IMG/VR virus record: IMGVR_UViG_2529292883_000007
Location: 1-10,506 of that record
Strand: one strand, 5' to 3'
Source of the DNA: a virus
Taxonomy: Duplodnaviria; Heunggongvirae; Uroviricota; Caudoviricetes
DNA length: 10,506 nucleotides
In this document: positions 1-10,506 of the stretch, piece after piece
Layout of the letters: each line of letters starts with the position of its first letter
How positions within the stretch are numbered: the stretch's first letter is position 1
Notes under the pieces: model-generated
The model's database searches: none
Seen by the model: the letters and a program-made list of their open reading frames with translations, nothing else
Told to the model about the DNA's origin: nothing
Program-made: the position numbers and the translations under genes

Positions 1-411
1 TCAAAAAAAGTTTCCCTGATAAAACCCCAGTACACGCTGCACAACTTCGCTCTTCCGGCACTCGCTACAAATTATGTTCAATCTCCTGTCGTAGCGACGT
101 ATTTCTCCGTCAGGTAATGACCAGATAAGGTCCGGATCAACCACAGATGGTTTCTTCACCTTTGCCCTCGAGAGTTTTTTGCGGGCATTTTGCCAGTCCT
201 TACGAGCCTGTTCTGACGGGAATAACCCGTAGCCAGAGTTGTATACATCGCCACTGGCAACCAGCTCTCTGGCCAGAACGCTCATCAGATATCTTGTTGC
301 CCCGGTTTTAGCTTCCTGTTGTCGTAACGTCTCGCGCCCACTCTGGCATACGAGTTCAACAACCTGCCCTTTAATTTTTTCTCGCTCTTCTTGTGTAAAT
401 ACTTTTGCCAT
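1..411 (-). CDS. Hypothetical phage protein, 136 aa, last gene of the leftward early operon
   Basis: Complete ORF on the minus strand (ATG at 411-409, stop TGA at 3-1), 40 nt downstream of the replication gene and co-oriented. No family recognised from the sequence. Confidence 0.45.
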   Translation of the reverse strand: MAKVFTQEEREKIKGQVVELVCQSGRETLRQQEAKTGATRYLMSVLARELVASGDVYNSGYGLFPSEQARKDWQNARKKLSRAKVKKPSVVDPDLIWSLPDGEIRRYDRRLNIICSECRKSEVVQRVLGFYQGNFF

Positions 412-451
412 AAGTCCTCCTGAAAATTACCTCATGACCTGAAATAAACAC

Positions 452-1417
452 TCACCCCCTGAATCCCGGTGGAATTTCGGTATCCGGTTCAGAAACATGA
501 TTCACACAACGCTGCGTCGGACCACGTCCCAGACGAATCACCAGTTCATCCCATTTTTCGCGAAGCTTTGACGGACTCATGATGTTTTTTACCCAGAATG
601 GATCCCGCTGTACCCGACCAAACATTTCGCAAATTTGCCTGTGCGTTCTTCCATCCAGCATCCGCATTGTGCGCACGTCATTGGCCCACGCGGTCCAGTT
701 GGGTTCTTTCGGTCGCGCGATCTCGCCATCATCGCTGGCAGCCTGTTCGTAAAGGCTCACGATTCGTCCCCAGATCCACTGCGCACACACCAAATCTTCC
801 TGGCTGCCCCACTGGCGTTTTTTTGCACTGAACACAACCGCGTCAGGATGTCGGGTTAAAAAATCCTGTTCAGCCGTCTGCGGGTCCGGTTGCGAAGCTT
901 CCGGACGAGAAGTGTTTTTATTCTCTGTAGTAATCTCTGTTGTATTCTCTGTAAGATCATCGGGCCATTTTGACCCGATGACATTGGGTCGTCTTGAACC
1001 AATGGAGCGTGTCATTTTGGCCTCTTCCATCGTGTCATTTTGACCTGATGGAGCGGCGCATTTTGACCTGATGGATTCGCTCAATTTGCCACCATCTAAA
1101 AGCTCGCTCTCGTAATTAATCGTGTAAAAATTAGTCATGTCACGCTTTGATTTATTGAGTTTTTCGCAACGCAAAAGCCCCAGCGTTTTCAGACTTGCAA
1201 ATGCGCGTTTTAACGTTGATTCAGACCAGAACGGAAACTGTTCCAGCCATTGTTCCGTTGTGTTATAAATCCAGCGAACCCCGTCACATTCCATACCGGA
1301 ACCGGTATCTCTCAACCAGTAATGCAGCTGCTGCAACACGATGGCTTCGTTCAGACCAATTTTCATCGCCAGCTGCGTGTTTATAACCAGCGGGCGTTCA
1401 GCAAAAAGGAGCTTCAT
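452..1417 (-). CDS. Putative replication initiation protein (lambda O-like organisation)
   Basis: 321-aa ORF whose ATG (1417-1415) is preceded by a GGGGGAGGGG Shine-Dalgarno. The N-terminal part has a winged-helix-like pattern; the middle of the gene carries iteron-like direct repeats followed by an AT-rich stretch, as in lambda O/ori. It sits after Cro-like and YdaT-like genes as in lambdoid pR operons. Family assignment is from memory only. Confidence 0.6.
   Translation of the reverse strand: MKLLFAERPLVINTQLAMKIGLNEAIVLQQLHYWLRDTGSGMECDGVRWIYNTTEQWLEQFPFWSESTLKRAFASLKTLGLLRCEKLNKSKRDMTNFYTINYESELLDGGKLSESIRSKCAAPSGQNDTMEEAKMTRSIGSRRPNVIGSKWPDDLTENTTEITTENKNTSRPEASQPDPQTAEQDFLTRHPDAVVFSAKKRQWGSQEDLVCAQWIWGRIVSLYEQAASDDGEIARPKEPNWTAWANDVRTMRMLDGRTHRQICEMFGRVQRDPFWVKNIMSPSKLREKWDELVIRLGRGPTQRCVNHVSEPDTEIPPGFRG
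966..1075. repeat. Iteron-like direct repeats (putative origin of replication inside the O-like gene)
   Basis: Two perfect copies of CATTTTGACCTGATGGA at 1036-1052 and 1059-1075, near-copies at 966-982 and 1013-1029, and a degenerate copy around 982-1007, all with about 23-bp spacing. An AT-rich tract lies at 905-958 on the downstream side in the coding orientation; it also holds three 12-13-bp repeats (ATTCTCTGTA-type). Confidence 0.5.
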
Positions 1418-1438
1418 CCCCTCCCCCAGAACACGTTA

Positions 1439-1864
1439 TCAATGCACCACCACGGCATTTCCCGCCGGACCACCACGATTCATCTGATTGAAACCAGCAA
1501 TCACCACCGCGACAAGTTCATCAGCGTCTCGCACCAGTCGTTCATGCGCCTCCACCAGTTCCCGAAAATAAGCGGAACTGTGGCTGCGCATCCTGGCCAC
1601 CAGCGGAGGTGGCATTGCCTTTTCGATCGCTGGTAACAACGCCTGAATTTTTTTCACCGCATCAGGAGTATCTTTCTCCACCCAGCGGAAAATTTTCTGA
1701 GTATTGCGAGCTAGGGCTTCTGGGTGTGAATCGTCGTACAGTTCCGGAAACGTCATACCCAGCTCAAAATAAGCCTGGGTTATTTCAGCCGCCGGAACTT
1801 TTTCACCGTCCGGATACGCCCAGGCATTCATCGCCATGCGGATGTGTTCATGCTTGATTTTCAT
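1439..1864 (-). CDS. ydaT: YdaT-family protein (Rac prophage YdaT-like, CII-like position)
   Basis: 141-aa ORF starting MKIKHEHI..., which I recall as the YdaT N-terminus. Its ATG (1864-1862) overlaps the stop of the upstream Cro-like gene in an ATGA arrangement, implying translational coupling. Confidence 0.6.
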   Translation of the reverse strand: MKIKHEHIRMAMNAWAYPDGEKVPAAEITQAYFELGMTFPELYDDSHPEALARNTQKIFRWVEKDTPDAVKKIQALLPAIEKAMPPPLVARMRSHSSAYFRELVEAHERLVRDADELVAVVIAGFNQMNRGGPAGNAVVVH

Positions 1865-2121
1865 GAATCAACTCCCGCCACTTGCTGTGTGTTAGCCTGA
1901 AACTCAGCAGGCAAGCCGTCGGTTGGGTTGGGATAAATATCAGGGCGAATTTCATGCGGGGTAACTTCCCAGCTCATTAGCTGACATAACGGAATTACCT
2001 GCTTTGGGGGAACGCCAAAGCTAAACCATTGCCAAACAGTCTGTTGAGCGACCCCCATATAACGACCTATTTCAGCTTGAGAGAATTTCTGCCTAATTTT
2101 TTCGCGAGTGCTATCTATCAT
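1861..2121 (-). CDS. Cro/YdaS-like helix-turn-helix regulator
   Basis: 86-aa ORF with an HTH-like segment (SQAEIGRYMGVAQQTVWQW) and a GGAGG Shine-Dalgarno upstream of the ATG at 2121-2119. It is divergent from the repressor gene and first in the leftward operon. Confidence 0.65.
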   Translation of the reverse strand: MIDSTREKIRQKFSQAEIGRYMGVAQQTVWQWFSFGVPPKQVIPLCQLMSWEVTPHEIRPDIYPNPTDGLPAEFQANTQQVAGVDS

Positions 2122-2155
2122 TTTGCCCTCCTCTAAAAACTATAGGCAAAAGACT

Positions 2156-2194
2156 ACAATAAAAAACTGTGCACGATCAACAGTTTTTTATTGT
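2156..2194. promoter_or_regulatory. Operator O1: perfect inverted repeat with 15-bp arms and a 9-bp spacer, in the divergent promoter region
   Basis: ACAATAAAAAACTGT (2156-2170), spacer gcacgatca, ACAGTTTTTTATTGT (2180-2194); the arms are exact reverse complements. On the minus strand a TTGATC -35-like hexamer overlaps the palindrome and faces the Cro-like gene. Confidence 0.55.
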
Positions 2195-2230
2195 GATGCT
2201 TTTAACAGTATTTCCCTGTAAAATTGAACG

Positions 2231-2632
2231 ATGATGAACGCCTTAGAAGTATCTATGTACAGAATCAGCAAGCTTCTCCAAGAAACAGGATGGAGCCAGG
2301 CTGAGCTTGCTCGTAGAATTGGTGTGACACAACAAACTGTTCAACAATGGGTCAGCGGTAAAGCTACACCTAAAGCCTCAAGTTTGGATAAACTGGTTGA
2401 GGTTACAGGGCATCCATTGCATTGGTTTTTATTGCCTCCTGAAGAGGGTGAGCAAATCTTCACCCCTGATACGATGAAAATTGGTCCTCGCCAACGCGAA
2501 CTGCTCCAGGCTTTTAGTGCGTTTCCAGAAGAAGACCAAGAAAAAATGCTTCAGGAAATCAAAGACAAGAAAAAATCAATGGAAGAAACCATTGCTCGAT
2601 GGTTGGCGGCGCAAAAAATCCGCCGAGCGTGA
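2231..2632 (+). CDS. XRE-family HTH repressor (PaaR-like / DicA-analogous prophage repressor)
   Basis: 133-aa ORF with an N-terminal XRE HTH (SQAELARRIGVTQQTVQQWVSG). It is divergent from the Cro-like gene and lies directly upstream of the antitoxin and ParE genes, matching the paaR-paaA-parE three-gene layout as I remember it. Confidence 0.7.
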   Translation: MMNALEVSMYRISKLLQETGWSQAELARRIGVTQQTVQQWVSGKATPKASSLDKLVEVTGHPLHWFLLPPEEGEQIFTPDTMKIGPRQRELLQAFSAFPEEDQEKMLQEIKDKKKSMEETIARWLAAQKIRRA

Positions 2633-2657
2633 CCAGTGAACAAAGAGGAGTCATGTC

Positions 2658-2849
2658 ATGAGTACAGCCCTTTCTCCGATAGTTTCAGAATTCGAAACTA
2701 CCGAACAAGAAAACAGTTACAACGAATGGTTGCGCGCTAAAGTCGCGTCAAGCTTTGCAGATCATCGCCCCGCAATACCGCATGACGAGGTGATGGCTGA
2801 AATGGAAAATCTTATTGCTCAAATTGCTGCGACTAGCGGGAGTGTGTAA
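2658..2849 (+). CDS. PaaA-type small antitoxin (ParE-associated)
   Basis: 63-aa ORF with a GAGGAG Shine-Dalgarno 7 nt upstream. Its stop codon overlaps the start of the ParE reading frame (TAATG at 2847-2851). The sequence (SPIVSEFETTEQENSYNEWLRAKVA...) resembles PaaA-type antitoxins from memory. Confidence 0.6.
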   Translation: MSTALSPIVSEFETTEQENSYNEWLRAKVASSFADHRPAIPHDEVMAEMENLIAQIAATSGSV

Positions 2850-3138
2850 TGCTACCCATTTTATGGCTACCATCTGCTCGCGATGATTTGCGTCAGATCG
2901 TAGCCTATATTGCCAAGGAAAATGTTCCACAGCAGCTCGTAGACTAAAAATACGTATTGAAACGTCTGTTTTAGCCCTCTCAGAGCATCCATATCTATAT
3001 CCGCCAAGTGATAGAGTATCCGGTTTGCGGGAAATTGTAGCTCACCCTAATTATATCGTTTTGTACCGAGTAGCAGCTTCAAGCATTGAAATTGTAAATA
3101 TTGTGCATACCCGCAGACAGTTTCCCTTCCCTGCCTGA
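2849..3138 (+). pseudogene. parE: ParE-family toxin gene disrupted by a frameshift
   Basis: The frame from ATG 2849 encodes a ParE-like N-terminus (MLPILWLPSARDDLRQIVAYIAKENVP...) and stops at TAA 2945-2947. A different frame, open from 2887 to the TGA at 3136-3138, encodes a ParE-like C-terminus (...AARRLKIRIETSVLALSEHPYLYPPSDRVSGLREIVAHPNYIVLYRVAASSIEIVNIVHTRRQFP). The switch point is near 2927-2935. Confidence 0.6.
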
Positions 3139-3156
3139 ACCGAACGATTTTCACAC

Positions 3157-3180
3157 TCCCTCATACGAGGGATTTTTTTT
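3157..3180 (+). terminator. Intrinsic terminator after the repressor-TA operon
   Basis: Stem TCCCTC (3157-3162) / GAGGGA (3167-3172) with loop ATAC, followed by 8 T (3173-3180). Confidence 0.6.
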
Positions 3181-3191
3181 GCCAAAAAACA

Positions 3192-3235
3192 ACAATTAAA
3201 AACTGTTGACACCAAACAGTTTTTAATTGTAGATT
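3192..3235 (+). promoter_or_regulatory. Operator O2 overlapping a rightward early promoter (pL analogue)
   Basis: ACAATTAAAAACTGT (3192-3206), spacer tgacaccaa, ACAGTTTTTAATTGT (3216-3230); perfect 15-bp arms, one base different from O1. A consensus -35 TTGACA (3204-3209) straddles the left arm and spacer; a -10 candidate TAGATT lies at 3230-3235 but the spacing is long, so the exact -10 is uncertain. Confidence 0.55.
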
Positions 3236-3414
3236 GTTTTCACCAGCCCACCCCGTCCCACAGAATGCAGGGCAAAACTTCGAGTTACCAGGCAGTGGTC
3301 AGGGGTTAAGTAGCCAGCCCGAGGCGTATGAACATGACGGCAGGGATCAAATTTAATAACTATGCAGCAGGTTTTTGTTCCGCTACCCCGGCGTTAAGGG
3401 GAAATGAGGTCAAC

Positions 3415-3570
3415 ATGGAAACTATCGATCTTGGCAACAACGAATCTCTGGTGTGCGGTGTGTTTCCCAACCAGGACGGAACGTTCACCGCGATGACGTA
3501 TACAAAAAGCAAAACGTTTAAAACCGAATCTGGCGCGCGTCGTTGGTTGGTAAGACATTCAGGTGAATAA
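3415..3570 (+). CDS. ydfA: YdfA-like small protein (first gene of a dicB-operon-like transcript)
   Basis: 51-aa ORF (METIDLGNNESLV...) with a GAGGT Shine-Dalgarno 5 nt upstream. Its position downstream of the repressor-controlled promoter and upstream of DicF matches the Qin ydfA-ydfB-...-dicF order. An in-frame upstream start at 3328 or 3334 would give a 78-80-aa product and cannot be excluded. Confidence 0.5.
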   Translation: METIDLGNNESLVCGVFPNQDGTFTAMTYTKSKTFKTESGARRWLVRHSGE

Positions 3571-3571
3571 A

Positions 3572-3718
3572 ATGAACGAAACAGAATTAAAACACGTTAT
3601 CGCTCTGCTTCTGGAGGATGCAAAACGCCTCCAGCAACTGGAACCAAATGCAGGCACTGAAGCCCGCATCTGGCTGGCATTGTACGCTATTGAGTCAGGT
3701 CGTGATGATGAAGGTTAA
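3572..3718 (+). CDS. ydfB: YdfB-like small protein
   Basis: 48-aa ORF (MNETELKHVIALLLEDAKRLQQLEPNAGTEARIWLALYAIESGRDDEG), absent from the ORF track because it is under 60 aa. AGGTGA Shine-Dalgarno 5 nt upstream; the ATG is 1 nt after the ydfA-like stop. Confidence 0.45.
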   Translation: MNETELKHVIALLLEDAKRLQQLEPNAGTEARIWLALYAIESGRDDEG

Positions 3719-3999
3719 GCATCATCTAAGTTTTTTACATAGCGCCCATTAGATTCGGTAACAAGAACTCCGGGATTTTTCTTAACTTTTGAGGCCACTG
3801 ATTCAGCAAGGTTAGCAACAGATTCTTTGTCTTCATTCTTGCTTGAATATGTATATTCGGCATTAGGAAGTCGGTAGGTGTTCCCTGAAGAGGTTGTAAT
3901 CGTTCTGGAGAATCCCTTTGCTTCCATTCGTTCATGAAGCTTATCGTAATCAGCGGAACTGGAATCGCGAAGTTCGATCCTGACTGTAAATTTTGCCAT
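3715..3999 (-). CDS. Hypothetical 94-aa protein, convergent to the early operon
   Basis: ATG at 3999-3997 preceded by a strong GGAGGATAAA Shine-Dalgarno (the longer track ORF starts inside this SD, so the 94-aa form is preferred). Its stop overlaps the ydfB-like stop by 4 bp (TTAA at 3715-3718). Non-repetitive, protein-like composition; family not recognised. Confidence 0.6.
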   Translation of the reverse strand: MAKFTVRIELRDSSSADYDKLHERMEAKGFSRTITTSSGNTYRLPNAEYTYSSKNEDKESVANLAESVASKVKKNPGVLVTESNGRYVKNLDDA

Positions 4000-4335
4000 T
4001 TTATCCTCCATTAAGGGCTGAATTAAAAATGGAGACCAACACGCTGCTACGTGTGGTCGTGCGCCGGACACGGATAAGAATCCGGCACTGACAGTTTACT
4101 GAAAGGATATTTCCCTGAAAAGTCAGGGCATAACACGAAAGCGTACGGCGAAGGCCTTCACCTATGAGGTTTGTCGTTAAATTTCTTCGACCGTGCGCTT
4201 CCGGTTGTGGCACTCCGCGAAATGGCGCGGTGGTAAGTATGGCGGGGTTATTCCTTCCCCCGTTGAGGACACCGGGTTGTCAGGTTGACCATACACTTAA
4301 GTGACAACCCCGCTGCAACGCCCTCTGTTATCAAT

Positions 4336-4393
4336 TTTCTGGTGACGTTTGGCGGTATCAGTTTTACTCCGTGACTGCTCTGCCGCCCTTTTT
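4336..4393 (+). ncRNA. dicF: DicF small RNA (ftsZ-targeting prophage sRNA) with its 3' terminator hairpin
   Basis: TTTCTGGTGACGTTTGGCGGTATCAGTTTTACTCCGTGACTGCTCTGCCGCCC followed by TTTTT matches my recollection of the DicF sequence. It ends in a GGCGG...CCGCC hairpin plus a U-run, and lies downstream of ydfA/ydfB-like genes as in Qin. Confidence 0.7.
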
Positions 4394-4801
4394 AAAGTGA
4401 ATTTTGTGATGTGGTGAATGCGGCTAAGCGCACGCGGAACAGTTAAAAAAAATATTGTTATGGGTGGATTCTCTGTATCCGGCGTTAATTGTTAACTGGT
4501 TAACGTCACCTGGAGGCACCAGGCACCACATCAACAAAGTTTATTTAATTATGCGCGAATTAACCGTTATTCGTGCAGGGGATTTCTACACCTGAAATCC
4601 ACAGTTCTTTAATAATATGGATCGGGCTGTCACGTAAACCACAATTCGGGGTGCCGCCGAATGCCCTGATATATCCGCGGAACCGGAACACAGGGTCGGG
4701 ATGTGATTTTTTGAGCAAACCAAACTGGTGGCTTCCGACACTTGCGAGAAGTCCAAATTTAGACTAAATTATGACTAAATTTAACGACAAGGCCGTACTT
4801 C

Positions 4802-5035
4802 ATGAAAATAGAAACTATCAGCTACATCAAGAAAAACGCAGCCTCACTGGACCTGGCTGAACCAATTCTTGTCACGCAGAATGGTGTTCCTGCATACGTA
4901 ATTGAATCCTATGAGCAGCAACAGGAACGCGAGAATGCTATTGCGTTACTGAAACTTCTCACTATTTCAGAAAGTGACAGGTCTGAAGGCCGCGTGTTTT
5001 CAAAAGAACAGTTGCTGGATAGCTTTAACAAGTAA
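4802..5035 (+). CDS. Phd/YefM-family antitoxin
   Basis: 77-aa ORF (MKIETISYIKKNAASLDLAEPILVTQNGVPAYVIESYEQQQERENAIALLKLL...) with the Phd/YefM pattern. The toxin ORF follows 8 nt after its stop. Confidence 0.7.
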   Translation: MKIETISYIKKNAASLDLAEPILVTQNGVPAYVIESYEQQQERENAIALLKLLTISESDRSEGRVFSKEQLLDSFNK

Positions 5036-5043
5036 GGTTGACG

Positions 5044-5364
5044 ATGCAGATTGAATACACGCTTACCGCCAGAACAAGCCTTGAGCAAATTGCCGACCAT
5101 CTCCGGAGTAACGACATTGACCCACTCCCTGTAATAGAAGAAATTCTTGAACGATTTGAAACAAGAGTTACGGCATTCCCGTCCGGATGCCAGTTATGCC
5201 CGGAGTTGCTCAAACTTGGCGTGGCGAAATATAGAGAATGCAACACACCAGAAGGTTACAGAGTGCTGTACTCTGTAGAAGGGGATGTTATCACTGCACA
5301 CGCGGTTCTTTCCCAACGTCAGGATATTAAACAGTTACTGTTCAGGCGACTGATTAGAGCTTAG
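5044..5364 (+). CDS. RelE/ParE-superfamily toxin (putative)
   Basis: 106-aa ORF from ATG 5044 (the track begins at an in-frame TTG at 5038), with AAGG 6 nt upstream. ParE/RelE-like pattern (conserved N-terminal helix, and YRVLYSVEGDVITAHAVL near the C-terminus). Lies directly downstream of the Phd/YefM antitoxin. Confidence 0.55.
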   Translation: MQIEYTLTARTSLEQIADHLRSNDIDPLPVIEEILERFETRVTAFPSGCQLCPELLKLGVAKYRECNTPEGYRVLYSVEGDVITAHAVLSQRQDIKQLLFRRLIRA

Positions 5365-5382
5365 CAATCACAAATTCAGTAC

Positions 5383-5411
5383 CCCCTGTTCCCCCAAGTT
5401 CAGGGGTTTTT
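5383..5411 (+). terminator. Intrinsic terminator after the TA pair
   Basis: Stem CCCCTG (5383-5388) / CAGGGG (5401-5406) with a 12-nt loop, followed by TTTTTGCTTTT. Confidence 0.5.
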
Positions 5412-5426
5412 GCTTTTCTGAGGGTG

Positions 5427-5455
5427 TTGACGCTGGGAACTGTCAGGGGTATATT
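5427..5455 (+). promoter_or_regulatory. Near-consensus sigma70-type promoter upstream of rha
   Basis: -35 TTGACG (5427-5432), 17-nt spacer, -10 TATATT (5450-5455); predicted transcription start around 5462. Confidence 0.5.
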
Positions 5456-5510
5456 TTGTCCGCACCTCATAAAACGGGTGCCGGGCGTGGAAACCCGATG
5501 TTCACTAACG

Positions 5511-5543
5511 CGCATAACCGCGCTCAGGCGGTTTTTTTATGCG
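5511..5543 (+). terminator. Terminator/attenuator hairpin within the rha leader
   Basis: Inner stem CCGC (5518-5521) / GCGG (5528-5531) with loop GCTCAG, followed by 7 T (5532-5538). An outer stem CGCATAA (5511-5517) / TTATGCG (5537-5543) could alternatively sequester part of the U-run. It sits about 55-80 nt downstream of the predicted start. Confidence 0.45.
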
Positions 5544-5707
5544 TAATGCACAGCCACATTCAGATTATGGTGGGACGTGCAGGGCAGCCGCAAGGCTGGC
5601 CGGGTTCGTTAGTGACCGGTATTTCCACCCCTGTACGTCTCACCACCCTTATGGTCGTGGAAAACCTTGGTGGTGAGTTAATCAAATTCACTAACGAGGC
5701 TGCTATC

Positions 5708-6262
5708 ATGGCTACTATCCCTACCCTTTCTCACCCTGACGTAACCATCAAAAATGGTCGCGCTGTCACTACGTCTGTTGCGGTTGCAGAGTTCTTCCGC
5801 AAAATGCACAAGGACGTTTTGCGCAAAATTGAAACGCTAGAATGCTCTGAAGATTTTAACGAGCGCAATTTTACGCCCGTTACCTACACCGACGCCAAAG
5901 GCGAAAAACGACCAATGTACCAAATCACCAAAAACGGCTTCGTTTTCCTGGTGATGGGGTTCACCGGCAAAAAAGCCGCAGCTTTCAAGGAAGCCTACAT
6001 CGCTGAATTCGATCGCATGGAGGCAGAGTTGTACCAGCTTAATACCACTACCACAGACAAAATAATTCCTGGTGATGGTCGCACTCTCGTTGTTCACTTC
6101 GACGAACGCGGCAATATCAAATTCACCGAAACCGTTCCTGACGGCGCTCTCGTCTGTACTCTGGATACTTTCCGCTTTTATCTGGAGAAGCAGGGGTGGA
6201 CTCTTGTAAACAGGAGCGCAATTAAAAATATGACCGTCGAGCAGTTGCTGAGTATTAAATAG
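5708..6262 (+). CDS. rha: Rha-family phage regulatory protein
   Basis: 184-aa ORF from ATG 5708 with a GAGG Shine-Dalgarno 8 nt upstream. The N-terminus (KNGRAVTTSVAVAEFFRKMHKDVLRKIETL...YQITKNGFVFLVMGFTGKKAAAFKEAYIAEFDRME) matches the Rha domain pattern. The track's longer 268-aa ORF starts at a TTG inside the promoter -10 and is not preferred. Confidence 0.7.
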   Translation: MATIPTLSHPDVTIKNGRAVTTSVAVAEFFRKMHKDVLRKIETLECSEDFNERNFTPVTYTDAKGEKRPMYQITKNGFVFLVMGFTGKKAAAFKEAYIAEFDRMEAELYQLNTTTTDKIIPGDGRTLVVHFDERGNIKFTETVPDGALVCTLDTFRFYLEKQGWTLVNRSAIKNMTVEQLLSIK

Positions 6263-6308
6263 TTTTCTGGAATTTTCTTAATGCGACAAATTTATTAAGG
6301 AGATAATT

Positions 6309-6530
6309 ATGATTGCTCATCACTTCGGAACTGATGATATTCCTCGTCAGTGCGTGACTCCCGGTGATTATGTTATTCATAAAGGAAGAACATATATTGC
6401 TTCGGTAAACAATATTAAAAAACACCGGCTCTATATTCGTGATTTTTCCACACAACACTGTATTAATGAAACCATGATTAAAGTCTTCCTTGATCGTGAT
6501 GGTTTACCTGTAAAGGCGGAGTCGTGGTGA
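6309..6530 (+). CDS. Small protein, possibly KilR-like (Rac cell-division inhibitor family)
   Basis: 73-aa ORF with a strong AAGGAG Shine-Dalgarno 6 nt upstream, in a locally AT-rich segment. The KilR assignment rests on its length, its position next to the recE-like gene and a tentative recollection of the KilR sequence. Confidence 0.5.
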
Positions 6531-6647
6531 GCTGTAATAAAATAACTACCCCAATACGACATTCAGTTTAATAAATACATCAGATTCGATTCTTATATGC
6601 CAGCAATGGCAGTGATTTGTTCACCCCTAAATCTGTAATGAGGTTTA

Positions 6648-9086
6648 TTGATGAGCACGAATAAAGAACTGTTTGCGCTATATTGCGAAGCTAAAAATGA
6701 CAAGGTCAGAAAGCGTCTCGGTATTAAAGGTGGCTTTTTCTGGATCGAAGCCAAAAAACTTTCCGTTGCAGTTTCCCGCTGTATTGCCGCTATGGACGAT
6801 GCTGGCTACGACGAAGATGATTTCAAAAAAACAGTTCGCGTCCATTTGCCTGTTGTAAATGACCTGCCACCTGAAGGCGTATTTGATACTGATTTCTGTA
6901 ACCGTTACGAAAAAGGTGGAGAAGATGGCATCACAATGATGCCGGTACCGTCCAGCAACAGCGATGAAAACAGTAACGCCGCTAATACTAACGTCAACGG
7001 CGAAGACATGACTGAGATTGAGGAGAATATGCTTCTGCCGGTTTCAGGTCAGCTTCTGCCTGTTAGATGGCTGGCACAGCACGGCAGCGAAAAACCTGTC
7101 ACGCATGTTTCACGGGATGAACTGCGGGCATTACATAACGCACAGGAAGAAAAACTTCCCGCCGTTACCGCTCTGGCCATCTCAAATAAAGCAGTGCAAC
7201 TCGAACCGCTGGAGATTCGGGATTTGTACAAACTGGTGCGGGACACTGACAAAGTTTTTCCCGCCCCCGTAAATTCAGACCTGGGACTGATGACTTCCTT
7301 CATCGAAGCATACCTGGACGCTGACTACACCAATCGCGGTCTGCTTACAAAAGAGTGGATGAAAGGAAATCATGTTTCGCGAATCAGCCGCACACCATCC
7401 GGCGCTAACGCTGGCGGCGGTATTCTTACCGATCGCGGCGAAGGTTTTGTACACGATGATGCATCACTGGCGCGCGACGTAGCCACTGGCGTGCTGGCCC
7501 GTTCAATGGACGTGGACATTTATAACCTTCATCCGGCACACGCTAAACGCGTCGAGGAAATTATCGCTGAAAATAAACCGCCCTTTTCTGTTTTCTTCAG
7601 CAAATTCATCACCATGCCGGGCCACAAGGATTTCTCCCGTGCCATCGTGGTTGCCTCCGTGAAAGAAGCACCAGTTGGTATAGAGGCTATGCCCCACCGT
7701 GTCACCGAATACCTGAATAAGGTGCTGACTGAAACCGATCATGCCAACCCTGATCCGGAAATCGTGGATATTGCCTGCGGTCGCTCCTCTGCCCCGATGC
7801 CGCAGCGTGTAACGGAAAAAGAAAAACATGATGAAGAAAAACCGCAACCATCTGGCGCAATGGCAGATGAACAGGCAACGGCTGAAACAGTGGAACCGGA
7901 TGCAACTGAACATCATCCGGACACGCAGCCGGTGGATGCTCAGCCACAGGTGAATTCTGTTGATGCGAAATATCAGAAACTGCGGGCAGAACTCCATGAA
8001 GCCAGGAAAAACATTTCGCCTAAAAATCCTGTCGACGCAAACAAATTACTGGCCGCCTCTCGCGGAGAATTTGTTGAAGGGATTAGTGACCCGAATGATC
8101 CGAAATGGGTTAAGGGGCACCAGACTCGCGAGTCTTCGAACCAGAATCAACCAGAAGTGGAACAAACCAGGTCAGAATCGGGACAAAATAGCCAGGATGC
8201 ACACCAAAATGAACCAAAAACGATACATCCGGAGCCAGCAGCGCAACATGCACAGAAAAATCCCTGTAATGTTTGTGGGGAAACTGGCGGGGGCACATGC
8301 CCTGACTGTGCCTCAGTAATGGGTGACGCAACTTACCATGAGACATTCTGCGAGGAAGATTCAGATGAATCTCAGGAAAAAGCTCCGGAGGAGATGGAAA
8401 ACCCTGAACATCCGCATCCGGAAAATACTGACAGCAATCAGCATAACAATAGCGGTGATAAAACTGACAGGACGACAAATTCCTTAATTAATATGTACGG
8501 TTATAAGAAAAGAACATCCACCAGCAGAATGTGTCACCATCTGATGATCGACCTTGAAACAATGGGAAAAAATCCTGATTCCCCGATTATCTCAATAGGT
8601 GCAATATTTTTCGATCCGCAAACCGGAGAGATGGGACCAGAATTTAATAAAACCATCGATCTGGAAACTGCTGGCGGAGTCATTGATCGGGACGCGATCA
8701 AGTGGTGGCTGAAGCAATCACGCGAAGCGCAATCTGCCATTCTGACCGATGAAATCCCGTTAGATGATGCACTGCTGCAATTGCGGGAATTTATCGCCGA
8801 AAACTCCGGTGAATTGTTTGTTCAGGTCTGGGGAAATGGAGCCAACTTCGACAACGTGATTTTGCGCCGTTCATATGAACGGCAGGGTATCCCCTGCCCG
8901 TGGCGCTACTACAACGATCGCGATGTACGCACAATCATTGAACTGGGAAAATCCATAGACTTCGATGCCAGGACGCCTATTCAATTCGAAGGCATACGCC
9001 ACAATGCGCTGGATGATGCCCGTCACCAGGCGAAATACGTTTCAGCAATCTGGCAAAAACTGATCCCGAATCAGTCTGATTTTTAA
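6648..9086 (+). CDS. Large prophage exonuclease: RecE-like N-terminal/central region fused to a C-terminal DEDDh (DnaQ/RNase T-like) 3'-5' exonuclease domain
   Basis: 812-aa ORF with GAGG 8 nt upstream. The C-terminal domain has the three DEDDh motifs: Exo I MIDLETMG, Exo [14 protein letters not shown], Exo [15 protein letters not shown] CxxC-x7-CxxC motif ([15 protein letters not shown]) and an acidic, Pro/Gln/Glu-rich low-complexity segment lie between the N-terminal region and the nuclease domain. It occupies the exo/recE position upstream of xis-int. Confidence 0.75.
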
Positions 9087-9149
9087 TGTTCAACCCCAGT
9101 CGTCGCCCCCAGCTATAGTGGCGGCGACCATGATTAGCGAACGATACTC

Positions 9150-9398
9150 ATGGCAAGACTTATTCTGCTCACTGAGTGGGCAAAAGAGGAATTCAGCGAT
9201 CCGGTCCCTACTCCGGGCACGTTAAGTAAATACGCTAAAGCCGGAATGATATTTCCTCTCCCCAAAAAAGTTGGAAGACACTGGCGAGTGGATCCGCGAG
9301 CTCGCTTTGTCGGAATGGTAAACAAGCCGGAGGTGATCGCCACAGATCATCCTGCTTTAAAGAGGATACTGGAAGATGGCACGCCCGCGAAAATATAA
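9150..9398 (+). CDS. xis: Excisionase (Xis-like)
   Basis: 82-aa ORF immediately upstream of int, with its 3' end overlapping the int start by 23 nt as in lambda xis/int. The sequence (LTEWAKEEF...MIFPLPKKVGRHWRVDP) resembles excisionase-family proteins. Confidence 0.65.
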   Translation: MARLILLTEWAKEEFSDPVPTPGTLSKYAKAGMIFPLPKKVGRHWRVDPRARFVGMVNKPEVIATDHPALKRILEDGTPAKI

Positions 9399-10506
9399 AA
9401 CCGCTGTTCCGGGATTATCTCCGTATTTTGACAAAAGAAATAACAAAGTTTACTGGCGTTACAGGCATCCCATCACAGGTAAAAATCATGGACTCGGCAG
9501 TATTGACCAGAAACTGGCGGAAACCATTGCAGCAGAAGCGAACAGCCGTCTTGCCAGACAACAAATGGAGCAAATGCTCAGTCTGCAGGAGAAAATTATT
9601 AGTGATACCGGCGGCGCATCAACCGTTTCCATTTTTCTGAATAATTACAGAAAAATTCAACAGGAAAGATATGAGAACGGAGAGATCAAACTCAGCACGC
9701 TGAAGCAAAAAGCGGCTCCTCTCAGGGTGTTTGATGAACGTTTTGGAGCCAGGCCGCTAGATGCCATAACCGTAAAAGATGTGGTATCAGTGCTGGAAGA
9801 ATACAAGGCAAAGGGACATAACAGAATGGGACAAATTTTCAGGAAGGTCTTGATCGATGTTTTCCGGGAGGCTCAACAAACGGGTGATGTCCCGCCAGGC
9901 TTTAACCCGGCTGAATCGGCAAAAAAACCGCAAGTGCGGATATCAAGACAGCGACTGACTTTTGATGAGTGGATGATGATTTATAACGCAGCGGAAAAGG
10001 ATGGTTACTTTTTACAGCGCGGCATGCTGCTGGCTCTGATGACGGGCCAGCGTCTTTCGGATATTTGCAAAATGCAGTTTTCGGATATCCGGGATGGTTA
10101 CCTTCATGTCGAACAGCAAAAAACAGGAGCCCGGATAGCCATTCCTCTGGCTCTGCGTTGCGACAAATTAAATCGTACCCTGGGTGACGTGGTGTCATCC
10201 TGTCGTGATTACATCCTTAGTCCGTGGTTATTGCACCATCATCACGCTAAGGGGATGGGTAAGCGCGGCGGGATGGTTAAACCAGCAACGTTAACAGTCG
10301 CATTTAAAAAAGCCCGGGATTCTGTGGATTACAACTGGCGTGCTAATGGCACGCCACCCTCTTTCCATGAGCAAAGATCTTTATCAGAACGATTGTTCAG
10401 AGAACAGGGAATTGATACCAAAATTTTGCTGGGTCATTCGAATCAAAAAATGACCGATATTTACAACGATGCACGCGGTAAGGAGTGGAAAAAACTGGTC
10501 ATTTGA
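9376..10506 (+). CDS. int: Lambda-family tyrosine integrase
   Basis: 376-aa ORF with clear similarity to lambda Int as I recall it: RLTFDEWMMIYNAAEKDGYF / MTGQRLSDICKMQFSDIRDGYLHVEQQKTGARIAIPLAL and the C-terminal PPSFHEQRSLSERLF...LLGHSNQKMTDIYNDARGKEWKKL, including the catalytic R...HxxR...Y arrangement. The stop is at the window edge, so the att site should lie just downstream of the window. Confidence 0.9.
   Translation: MARPRKYKTAVPGLSPYFDKRNNKVYWRYRHPITGKNHGLGSIDQKLAETIAAEANSRLARQQMEQMLSLQEKIISDTGGASTVSIFLNNYRKIQQERYENGEIKLSTLKQKAAPLRVFDERFGARPLDAITVKDVVSVLEEYKAKGHNRMGQIFRKVLIDVFREAQQTGDVPPGFNPAESAKKPQVRISRQRLTFDEWMMIYNAAEKDGYFLQRGMLLALMTGQRLSDICKMQFSDIRDGYLHVEQQKTGARIAIPLALRCDKLNRTLGDVVSSCRDYILSPWLLHHHHAKGMGKRGGMVKPATLTVAFKKARDSVDYNWRANGTPPSFHEQRSLSERLFREQGIDTKILLGHSNQKMTDIYNDARGKEWKKLVI

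Follow-up and report, generated by a model that had tools for sequence, protein, structure and literature searches.

A probable IsrK–C4 RNA switch upstream of rha in a Rac-like prophage

The gene rha lies in a 10,506-nt window (the whole stretch of DNA analysed, positions 1 to 10,506 of IMG/VR record IMGVR_UViG_2529292883_000007) and is preceded by a promoter, a terminator hairpin and a structured leader, which raises the question of what RNA is made from positions 5427–5707 and how it bears on the expression of rha. The original prediction regarded this segment as a candidate small RNA or attenuator and knew of no described regulatory RNA at this position. The latter statement did not hold: two Rfam families match the segment above their gathering scores, and the IsrK–C4 arrangement that lies upstream of rha is already known, having been published for the satellite phage P4 and the Salmonella prophage Gifsy-1. 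IsrK and C4 are the seqA and CI RNA of the P4 literature, and IsrK–C4 systems occur in some lambdoid prophages (PMC3632133). We consider it highly probable that the region is a complete IsrK–C4 RNA switch controlling rha in a Rac-like prophage.

RNA families in the leader of rha

Rfam searches of the window identified IsrK (65.9 bits against a gathering score of 50, E = 1.2e-12), matched over the full model (1–77), and, 24 nt downstream, the C4 antisense RNA (80.3 bits against a gathering score of 45, E = 6.4e-15, model positions 1–87). A third model, c4-a1b1, matched weakly at 5449–5501, with 23.9 bits and below its gathering score. The IsrK, c4-a1b1 and C4 models occur in identical order in the window, in the antQ–anrP interval of Gifsy-1 and in the P4 immunity region. 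The 3' end of C4 reads ...CACCACCC and is tRNA-like. ARAGORN detected no tRNA or tmRNA in the structured leader, and such an origin was rejected. In P1 and P4, the C4/CI RNA is freed from its precursor by RNase P.

A protein-guided search of GTDB returned only 9 loci, too few for comparison, and we therefore turned to IMG/VR, where loci were collected by a 19-mer of the C4 3' arm, matched exactly; the sample obtained in this way is biased toward close relatives. The resulting set comprises 84 distinct modules, taken as 370-nt sequences, with 42 different (b', a') combinations.

The near-consensus promoter TTGACG-17-TATATT is present, and its position is kept among the relatives in the 84-sequence alignment and also aligns with the Gifsy-1 promoter; taken alone it shows no excess over chance, since two promoter-like sites were found between 4800 and 6700 against 2.6 expected. 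By alignment it corresponds to PisrK of Gifsy-1 and, judging from the place upstream of the P4 IsrK match, it is presumably equivalent to the P4 immunity promoter PLE. The promoter looks constitutive. Transcription is predicted to begin near 5462 from position 1 of the IsrK model. The terminated RNA of about 75 nt anticipated from this point agrees with the 77 nt covered by the model, and the terminator hairpin with its U7 run was likewise borne out (Table 1).

The minimum free energy (MFE) fold of 5563–5650 equals the C4 model structure, a long closing stem around two hairpins, with an energy of −48.4 kcal/mol (z = −5.13; 0 of 200 shuffles equally stable). Over 5462–5725, the leader as a whole folded with z = −4.56 relative to shuffles. 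The GC-rich, stem-rich leader described in the original prediction is the C4 RNA. Some of its details required correction. The GNRA hairpin CAGCC-GCAA-GGCTG exists but lies four positions downstream of the 5581–5594 first given for it, and both arms of a second stem pair were found at revised positions, CTCACCACC at 5639–5647 and GGTGGTGAG at 5669–5677.

RNAalifold analysis of 54 distinct sequences revealed compensatory changes at all six pairs of IsrK hairpin 1, and all five pairs of C4 hairpin 1 were likewise compensatory among distinct relatives. The stems of IsrK hairpin 2 and C4 hairpin 2 were invariant among distinct relatives. The closing stem of C4 was unable to vary in this sample, as the loci had been picked by an exact match to its 3' arm.

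Downstream of C4, rha has a Shine–Dalgarno (SD) sequence, GAGG (5696–5699), and an ATG at 5708, both conserved in relatives. The fold places the SD in a local hairpin, in which GGUGAGU pairs with part of b2, and in 49 of 52 distinct relatives the pairing probability of the SD exceeds 0.5. In Rha-type modules, the rha AUG is also predicted to pair with the a2 region.

Table 1. Coordinates of the features upstream of rha in the window.
Feature	Position	Strand	Basis
Sigma-70-type promoter TTGACG-17-TATATT	5427–5455	+	10/12 consensus positions
Stop-free extension of rha frame over IsrK and C4	5456–5707	+	ORF scan, Pfam Phage_ASH
IsrK-like small RNA (P4 seqA equivalent)	5462–5538	+	RF01394
IsrK hairpin 1	5462–5481	+	Compensatory pairs, fold
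IsrK hairpin 2	5482–5497	+	Fold; followed by single-stranded tract, then terminator
a1 GTGGAAA, loop of IsrK hairpin 2	5487–5493	+	Complementary to a'
b1 TCACTAACG, first repeat copy, single-stranded IsrK tract	5502–5510	+	Complementary to b'
Intrinsic terminator with outer arms	5511–5543	+	Stem 5516–5533, U-run 5532–5538 (U7)
C4/CI-type antisense RNA (Gifsy-1 STnc1160 equivalent)	5563–5650	+	RF01695
C4 outer stem, 17 bp	5568–5584 pairs 5629–5645	+	Fold
C4 GNRA hairpin (hairpin 1) CAGCC-GCAA-GGCTG	5585–5598	+	Sequence, fold
C4 hairpin 2, 12-nt loop	5599–5620	+	Fold
b' TCGTTAGTGA, loop of C4 hairpin 2	5606–5615	+	Sequence, fold
a' TTTCCAC, unpaired C4 junction strand	5622–5628	+	Sequence, fold
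a2 GTGGAAA, downstream of C4	5657–5663	+	Complementary to a'
Local hairpin burying rha ribosome-binding site	5665–5699	+	Fold; anti-SD CCUUG 5665–5669 pairs CGAGG 5695–5699
b2 TCACTAACGA, second repeat copy	5688–5697	+	Complementary to b'
rha, 184 aa, Phage_pRha domain	5708–6262	+	PF09669, 108.8 bits

Recognition sites and the level of control

C4 carries two exposed sequences, a' and b', that are complementary to a1 and b1 in IsrK and to a second pair of copies, a2 and b2, downstream. The a' site pairs over 7 nt with each of a1 and a2, and b' pairs over 9 nt with b1 and 10 nt with b2, the latter overlapping the first bases of the rha SD. Two copies of the 10-mer TTCACTAACG, and no more, are present in the window, at 5501–5510 and 5687–5696; they form the direct repeat of the original prediction, whose second copy had been placed one base off, at 5686–5695, and correspond to b1 and b2, the targets of the C4 loop b'. 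The a1/a'/a2 triplet had escaped the first reading of the sequence.

For the window alone, we used RNAduplex to compare duplex energies with those of shuffled sequences. Pairing of b' with the leader following C4 was equalled in 4 of 300 shuffles and that of a' with IsrK in 8 of 300, and the remaining two of the four site pairs were not clearly better than shuffles. We relied on covariation in their place. Covariation across prophages, which the original prediction had proposed as a check, was found for both triplets in the 84 modules. A complement of the a' heptamer was present both upstream and downstream in 41 of the 42 combinations, and in cognate pairs the longest exact complement of b' had a mean length of 7.0 nt on the upstream side and 8.3 nt on the downstream side, compared with about 4.7–4.8 nt in non-cognate ones. 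These data support the conclusion that the three copies of each site change together across relatives. The a and b sequences also reassort, the b' of the window being combined with a different a' in one relative (L119), and recognition sequences identical to those of the window are present in two IMG/VR contigs (L123 and L029).

By analogy with P4 and Gifsy-1, most transcripts would end at 5538, giving the 77-nt RNA, and a fraction would read through. The read-through RNA would be translationally silent, with the SD and AUG of rha held in the local hairpin, and within this silent molecule a1/b1 or a2/b2 may be bound in cis by the C4 loops. Excision of C4 as a stable RNA, known from P1 and P4, may also occur. 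The short IsrK, when free, would compete in trans for a' and b' and render the read-through RNA translatable; Rha would then be made and could act as an antirepressor-type regulator in the lysis–lysogeny control of the prophage. By homology, rha would be silent by default, and competition of IsrK for the C4 loops would be the ON switch. We infer the read-through fraction and the processing of C4 in the window from the same analogy, and the start site from the IsrK model.

The model systems P1, P4 and Gifsy-1 give no uniform direction of control by C4. In P1 the C4/CI RNA represses translation, and in P4 it represses transcription elongation. Constitutive STnc1160 in Gifsy-1 did not oppose IsrK and led to stronger growth arrest (PMC4825925). 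The original prediction offered a short terminated RNA and conditional read-through as alternatives. Both appear to apply, the first from the IsrK match and the second from Gifsy-1, where part of the transcripts pass the terminator into the downstream gene (PMC4825925), and the either/or framing was abandoned.

It is possible, if on balance unlikely, that control of rha is exerted as in P4, with C4 acting mainly on transcription by pairing to a1/b1 and a2/b2 on the nascent RNA and ending transcription prematurely, ahead of rha, instead of affecting translation. P4 has the same three types of RNA element, and IsrK supplied in trans raised a transcriptional fusion in Gifsy-1 8-fold (PMC4825925). 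The corresponding effect on anrP translation was 139-fold, however (PMC4825925), and in the window b2 adjoins the SD, which together with the AUG lies in a conserved hairpin, pointing to translation; moreover, no second intrinsic terminator was found between 5650 and 5708. The translational and transcriptional modes could also operate together, since Rho-dependent polarity can follow when translation is blocked.

Alternative readings of the leader

Translational control by an IsrK–C4 switch presupposes a leader made of RNA genes, and the open reading frame of rha invites a different interpretation. No stop interrupts this frame as far back as a TTG at 5456, which gives a 268-aa ORF (5456–6262), so that the leader might be protein-coding, with rha translated from TTG 5456 (268 aa) or ATG 5498, an N-terminal "Ash domain" and incidental RNA features. 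The ORF matched Phage_ASH (PF10554) over residues 3–94 with 61.9 bits against a cut-off of 26, the 84-aa translation of the leader alone (5456–5707) scored 54.9 bits, and Pfam gave no family other than Ash in the leader. NCBI PGAP annotates the homologue in E. coli A34 as an 807-nt Rha CDS starting at the equivalent TTG, and Rha/Ash is handled in the literature as a two-domain protein. Among the 84 distinct relatives, one frame is open over the whole leader in 66, against 16% expected from composition.

We nevertheless regard a coding leader as very improbable. In 14 collinear relatives extending over the full rha gene, variable columns were distributed by codon position as 21/19/22 in the leader and as 68/44/122 in the rha CDS, the latter as expected for coding sequence. 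Only 26 relatives have the open leader frame in phase with the gene that follows; 40 have it out of phase and 18 have no open frame, and different relatives read the most conserved 19-mer in three frames. The original prediction had called the stop-free frame unexpected for a non-coding leader; the frame itself was confirmed, but dinucleotide shuffles of the window left the in-phase frame open in 5% of cases and some frame open in 16%. The P4 ORF that matches Ash is the old "cI" ORF, which lies over the CI RNA, and the P4 immunity factor is the CI RNA. In addition, rha has its own conserved GAGG and ATG. We judge that the "Ash domain" here represents the conceptual translation of two RNA genes and not a protein domain, and we conclude from these sequence comparisons that Rha probably starts at 5708.

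This reading extends beyond the window, as genome annotations of a 268-aa "Rha" and of "Rha/Ash", like the Pfam Ash family itself, appear to record two RNA genes in translated form. Studies that take PF10554 as a protein marker would be affected. In one survey of P4-like satellites, PF10554 served as the epsilon-protein profile, and work on Stx phages discusses the Ash domain as one of unknown function.

The leader frame might still be kept open by selection, with ribosome transit as the ON step. Control in Gifsy-1 requires translation of orf45 (PMC4825925), which starts at an equivalent AUG, and for this reason transit may have been retained as a component of the switch. All 84 relatives keep the AUG at 5567, which lies in the 5' arm of C4, and in 58 of them its ORF reaches or passes the start of the downstream gene. 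In Rha-type modules this ORF continues in frame into the cargo gene. Were transit the ON step, Rha would then be made in a 231-aa form, extended at its N-terminus by 47 residues that the antisense RNA gene itself encodes, and the leader would serve both as RNA and as coding segment. Shared ancestry explains much of the excess of open frames among the relatives. When the b cores were shuffled, the product over 20 cores came to about 10^-3, a value obtained for a class chosen for openness and against a null model free of positional constraints such as the SD, and stop avoidance in the variable cores is therefore suggestive only. We consider selection for ribosome transit improbable.

The promoter, terminator and structured leader all exist, as would also be expected of a previously undescribed small RNA or of a classical attenuator that gates rha through two mutually exclusive helices, a terminator and an antiterminator. 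The original prediction favoured structures of this kind because arms flanking the terminator, CGCATAA (5511–5517) and TTATGCG (5537–5543), can form a longer helix. The arms are present and conserved, and they co-vary in relatives as CGCATA/TATGCG, CGCACA/TGTGCG and CGACA/TGTCG. In the MFE fold and in the relatives, however, they stack onto the terminator helix and lengthen it in the read-through RNA, without competing with the terminator, and no competing antiterminator helix was found in either. Because the arms extend the terminator helix, they do not constitute a terminator/antiterminator pair. With both RNAs matching Rfam families above gathering scores and their arrangement already published, a new small RNA or attenuator is hardly credible.

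The IsrK–C4 module sits in the early-left region of a Rac-like prophage. Over 83% of 4800–6700, the best-matching complete E. coli genome was 88.6% identical, and a look-up of the exact Rha protein gave no match. The module is preceded, in order, by a YdaS/YdaT pair with an HTH repressor-like gene (2231–2632), a DicF RNA and a Phd/ParE toxin–antitoxin pair, and is followed by a kilR-like gene, a RecE-like exonuclease gene and an integrase gene. A lambdoid late promoter and terminator (pR'/tR' with a 6S-type RNA) read through by a Q antiterminator, as the promoter–terminator layout and the position of the Gifsy-1 module directly downstream of the Q-like antQ might suggest, is practically excluded by this gene context, since the neighbours are those of an early-left region, neither a Q gene nor lysis genes lie nearby, and the short RNA is a classified one by its match to IsrK.

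The gene controlled by the module varies. Rha (PF09669) in the window and AnrP (ORF6N, PF10543) in Gifsy-1 both contain domains of the domain-swapping "Bro network" typical of antirepressors, and the IMG/VR loci commonly carry a third cargo, whose sequence starts MANRKQ.... As Rha and AnrP are not homologous in sequence (BLASTP E = 0.065), the RNA module appears to be a portable switch attached to different cargo genes. A published switch that would decide the production of an antirepressor-type prophage protein was recovered from raw sequence. The 42 combinations in 84 modules show a large set of mutually distinct specificities on different cargo genes, and the co-varying recognition sequences may serve as a resource for orthogonal RNA switches and for the prediction of cross-immunity between prophages.

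Comparison with P1/P7, P4 and Gifsy-1

The antisense RNAs of the window and of the P1/P7 immI operon (c4 RNA–icd–ant) belong to a common Rfam family. In both systems, a' and b' are accompanied by a1/b1 upstream and by a2/b2 at the ribosome-binding site of the downstream gene, and the cargo is an antirepressor-type protein. Differing recognition sequences give P1 and P7 differing specificities. Neither an icd homologue nor a P1-type Ant was found in the window, with no ANT or KilAC match in Pfam; the downstream protein matches Phage_pRha only, which sets the locus apart from a P1-type immI operon. Unlike in P1, a terminator separates a1/b1 from C4 in the window; to our knowledge, P1 makes no separately terminated a1/b1 RNA.

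In the P4 immunity region (PLE–seqA–CI RNA–seqC), the IsrK, c4-a1b1 and C4 matches lie at 8692–8420 on the minus strand, in the same order as in the window. Both loci have a single antisense RNA with target copies on either side, and the historical "cI" ORF of P4, like the leader of the window, corresponds to a Pfam Ash translation. The two differ in the spacing between IsrK and C4, about 107 nt in P4 and 24 nt in the window, and in what lies downstream, the replication and derepression operon in P4 and rha in the window. The described output in P4 is premature transcription termination. P4 is a satellite, whereas the window derives from a lambdoid, Rac-like prophage.

The isrK–orf45/STnc1160–anrP segment of Gifsy-1 from Salmonella Typhimurium (Hershko-Shalev et al. 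2016, PMC4825925) is 77% identical to the window over 340 columns, with the promoter, the 77-nt IsrK and its terminator, the C4-type RNA, the SD and the gene for a Bro-network regulator all in register. The recognition sites differ, the a site being GTGGAAA in the window and TTGGCGT in Gifsy-1 and the b site TCACTAACG and TCACCG, respectively. The module of the window lies between the ParE toxin gene and kilR, that of Gifsy-1 after antQ, and Rfam gave no isrJ after the module in the window. The Gifsy-1 orf45 ends in an ATGA overlap with anrP. In the window, the equivalent AUG at 5567 is in frame with rha and no stop intervenes, so that the coupling step cannot be identical to that of Gifsy-1. 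The window has its own 45-codon ORF (5539–5676), which we rejected as an orf45 homologue, as orf45 starts at the AUG aligned with 5567 and is read in another frame.

In Gifsy-1, transcription of anrP needs PisrK (280 versus 3 Miller units) and basal translation of anrP is absent (4 Miller units). Processing of the read-through transcript yields the stable RNA STnc1160, and IsrK and STnc1160 have been likened to seqA and CI of P4 (PMC4825925). The a1:a' pairing of the window corresponds to helix b-I of Gifsy-1, which is experimentally proven there and on which the silent form of the Gifsy-1 RNA depends. The compensatory mutants G28A/C162U and G31A/C159U regained the wild-type RNA conformation on native gels, and their basal expression was below that of the single mutants C162U and C159U (PMC4825925). 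By our own numbering on the alignment, G28 and G31 would fall in a1 and C162 and C159 in a', so that one of the pairing types proposed for the window appears to have direct support in its homologue.

Conceptual translation of the leader and the Phage_ASH family

When the IsrK-C4 leader, the stretch preceding the rha coding sequence (window positions 5456-5707), is translated conceptually, the product matches the Pfam family Phage_ASH (PF10554), and PGAP annotates Rha as a 268-aa protein with the leader included (L001, 5656-6462). In satellite phage P4, PF10554 also matched the historical 'cI' ORF, which overlaps the CI RNA (L132, 8168-8584, minus strand). Published studies treat the family as marking a protein, namely epsilon in P4 and the 'Rha/Ash' proteins in Stx phages; to us, Phage_ASH looks like a translated RNA gene. 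Among 84 distinct related IMG/VR modules, the leader (equivalent to window 5462-5707) was open end to end in one reading frame in 66, and an ORF from an AUG in the C4 5' arm extended to the cargo start in 58. Open leader frames in these relatives exceed the expectation from composition (16%), yet are not universal.

Recognition sites and predicted structure at the rha start

Across the same 84 modules (L013-L131), the C4 loops and their flanking sites yielded 42 different combinations of the C4 recognition sequences a' and b'. The a and b sites reassort independently, one b' being seen with different a', which together with the number of combinations suggests that recombination between the two sites has built a large repertoire of distinct immunity specificities. 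For Rha-type modules, base pairing is predicted between the a2 target region (5652-5660) and the region of the rha start codon (5706-5714; both within window 5636-5725, plus strand), so that in this model a2 and b2 both lie within the structure that hides the rha ribosome-binding site.

Genes around the module

The Phd/YefM-ParE/RelE pair lies directly 5' of the IsrK-C4-rha module; farther upstream on the same strand, the sub-threshold STnc100 match directly follows DicF. Between the parE stop codon, just 5' of it, and the IsrK promoter, we observed a terminator-like hairpin, absent from the terminator scan output because its loop is long, which would shield the module from upstream transcription. 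Downstream, the kilR-like product had no Pfam match, and no recT was seen between the kilR-like, RecE-like and integrase genes (window 6309-10506).

Features flanking the module, and cargo genes joined to it
Feature	Position	Strand	Details
DicF RNA	4337-4388	+	full-length match, 76.7 bits (gathering score 48)
STnc100	4379-4576	+	slightly below threshold, 46 bits vs 47
Phd/YefM antitoxin	4802-5035	+	Pfam
ParE/RelE toxin	5038-5364	+	Pfam
Terminator-like hairpin	5383-5417	+	CCCCTG ... CAGGGG, 12-nt loop, then TTTTTGCTTTT
kilR-like gene	6309-6530	+	73 aa; name from E. coli annotations
RecE-like protein	6648-9086	+	812 aa; Exonuc_VIII and C-terminal Rv2179c-like 3'-5' exoribonuclease domain
Lambda-type integrase ORF	9376-10506	+	stops exactly at the window's final base
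Cargo Rha			PF09669; window
Cargo ORF6N	33513-34076 (L002)		PF10543; Gifsy-1
Cargo protein starting MANRKQ...			about 29/84 IMG/VR sequences

Cargo genes joined to the module

Unrelated cargo genes are attached to the same RNA module in the window, in Gifsy-1 and in many IMG/VR loci, the last of which add a few further types besides the three tabulated. Compared with the Salmonella prophage Gifsy-1, the RNA module is the same, whereas the cargo is ORF6N there and Rha here.
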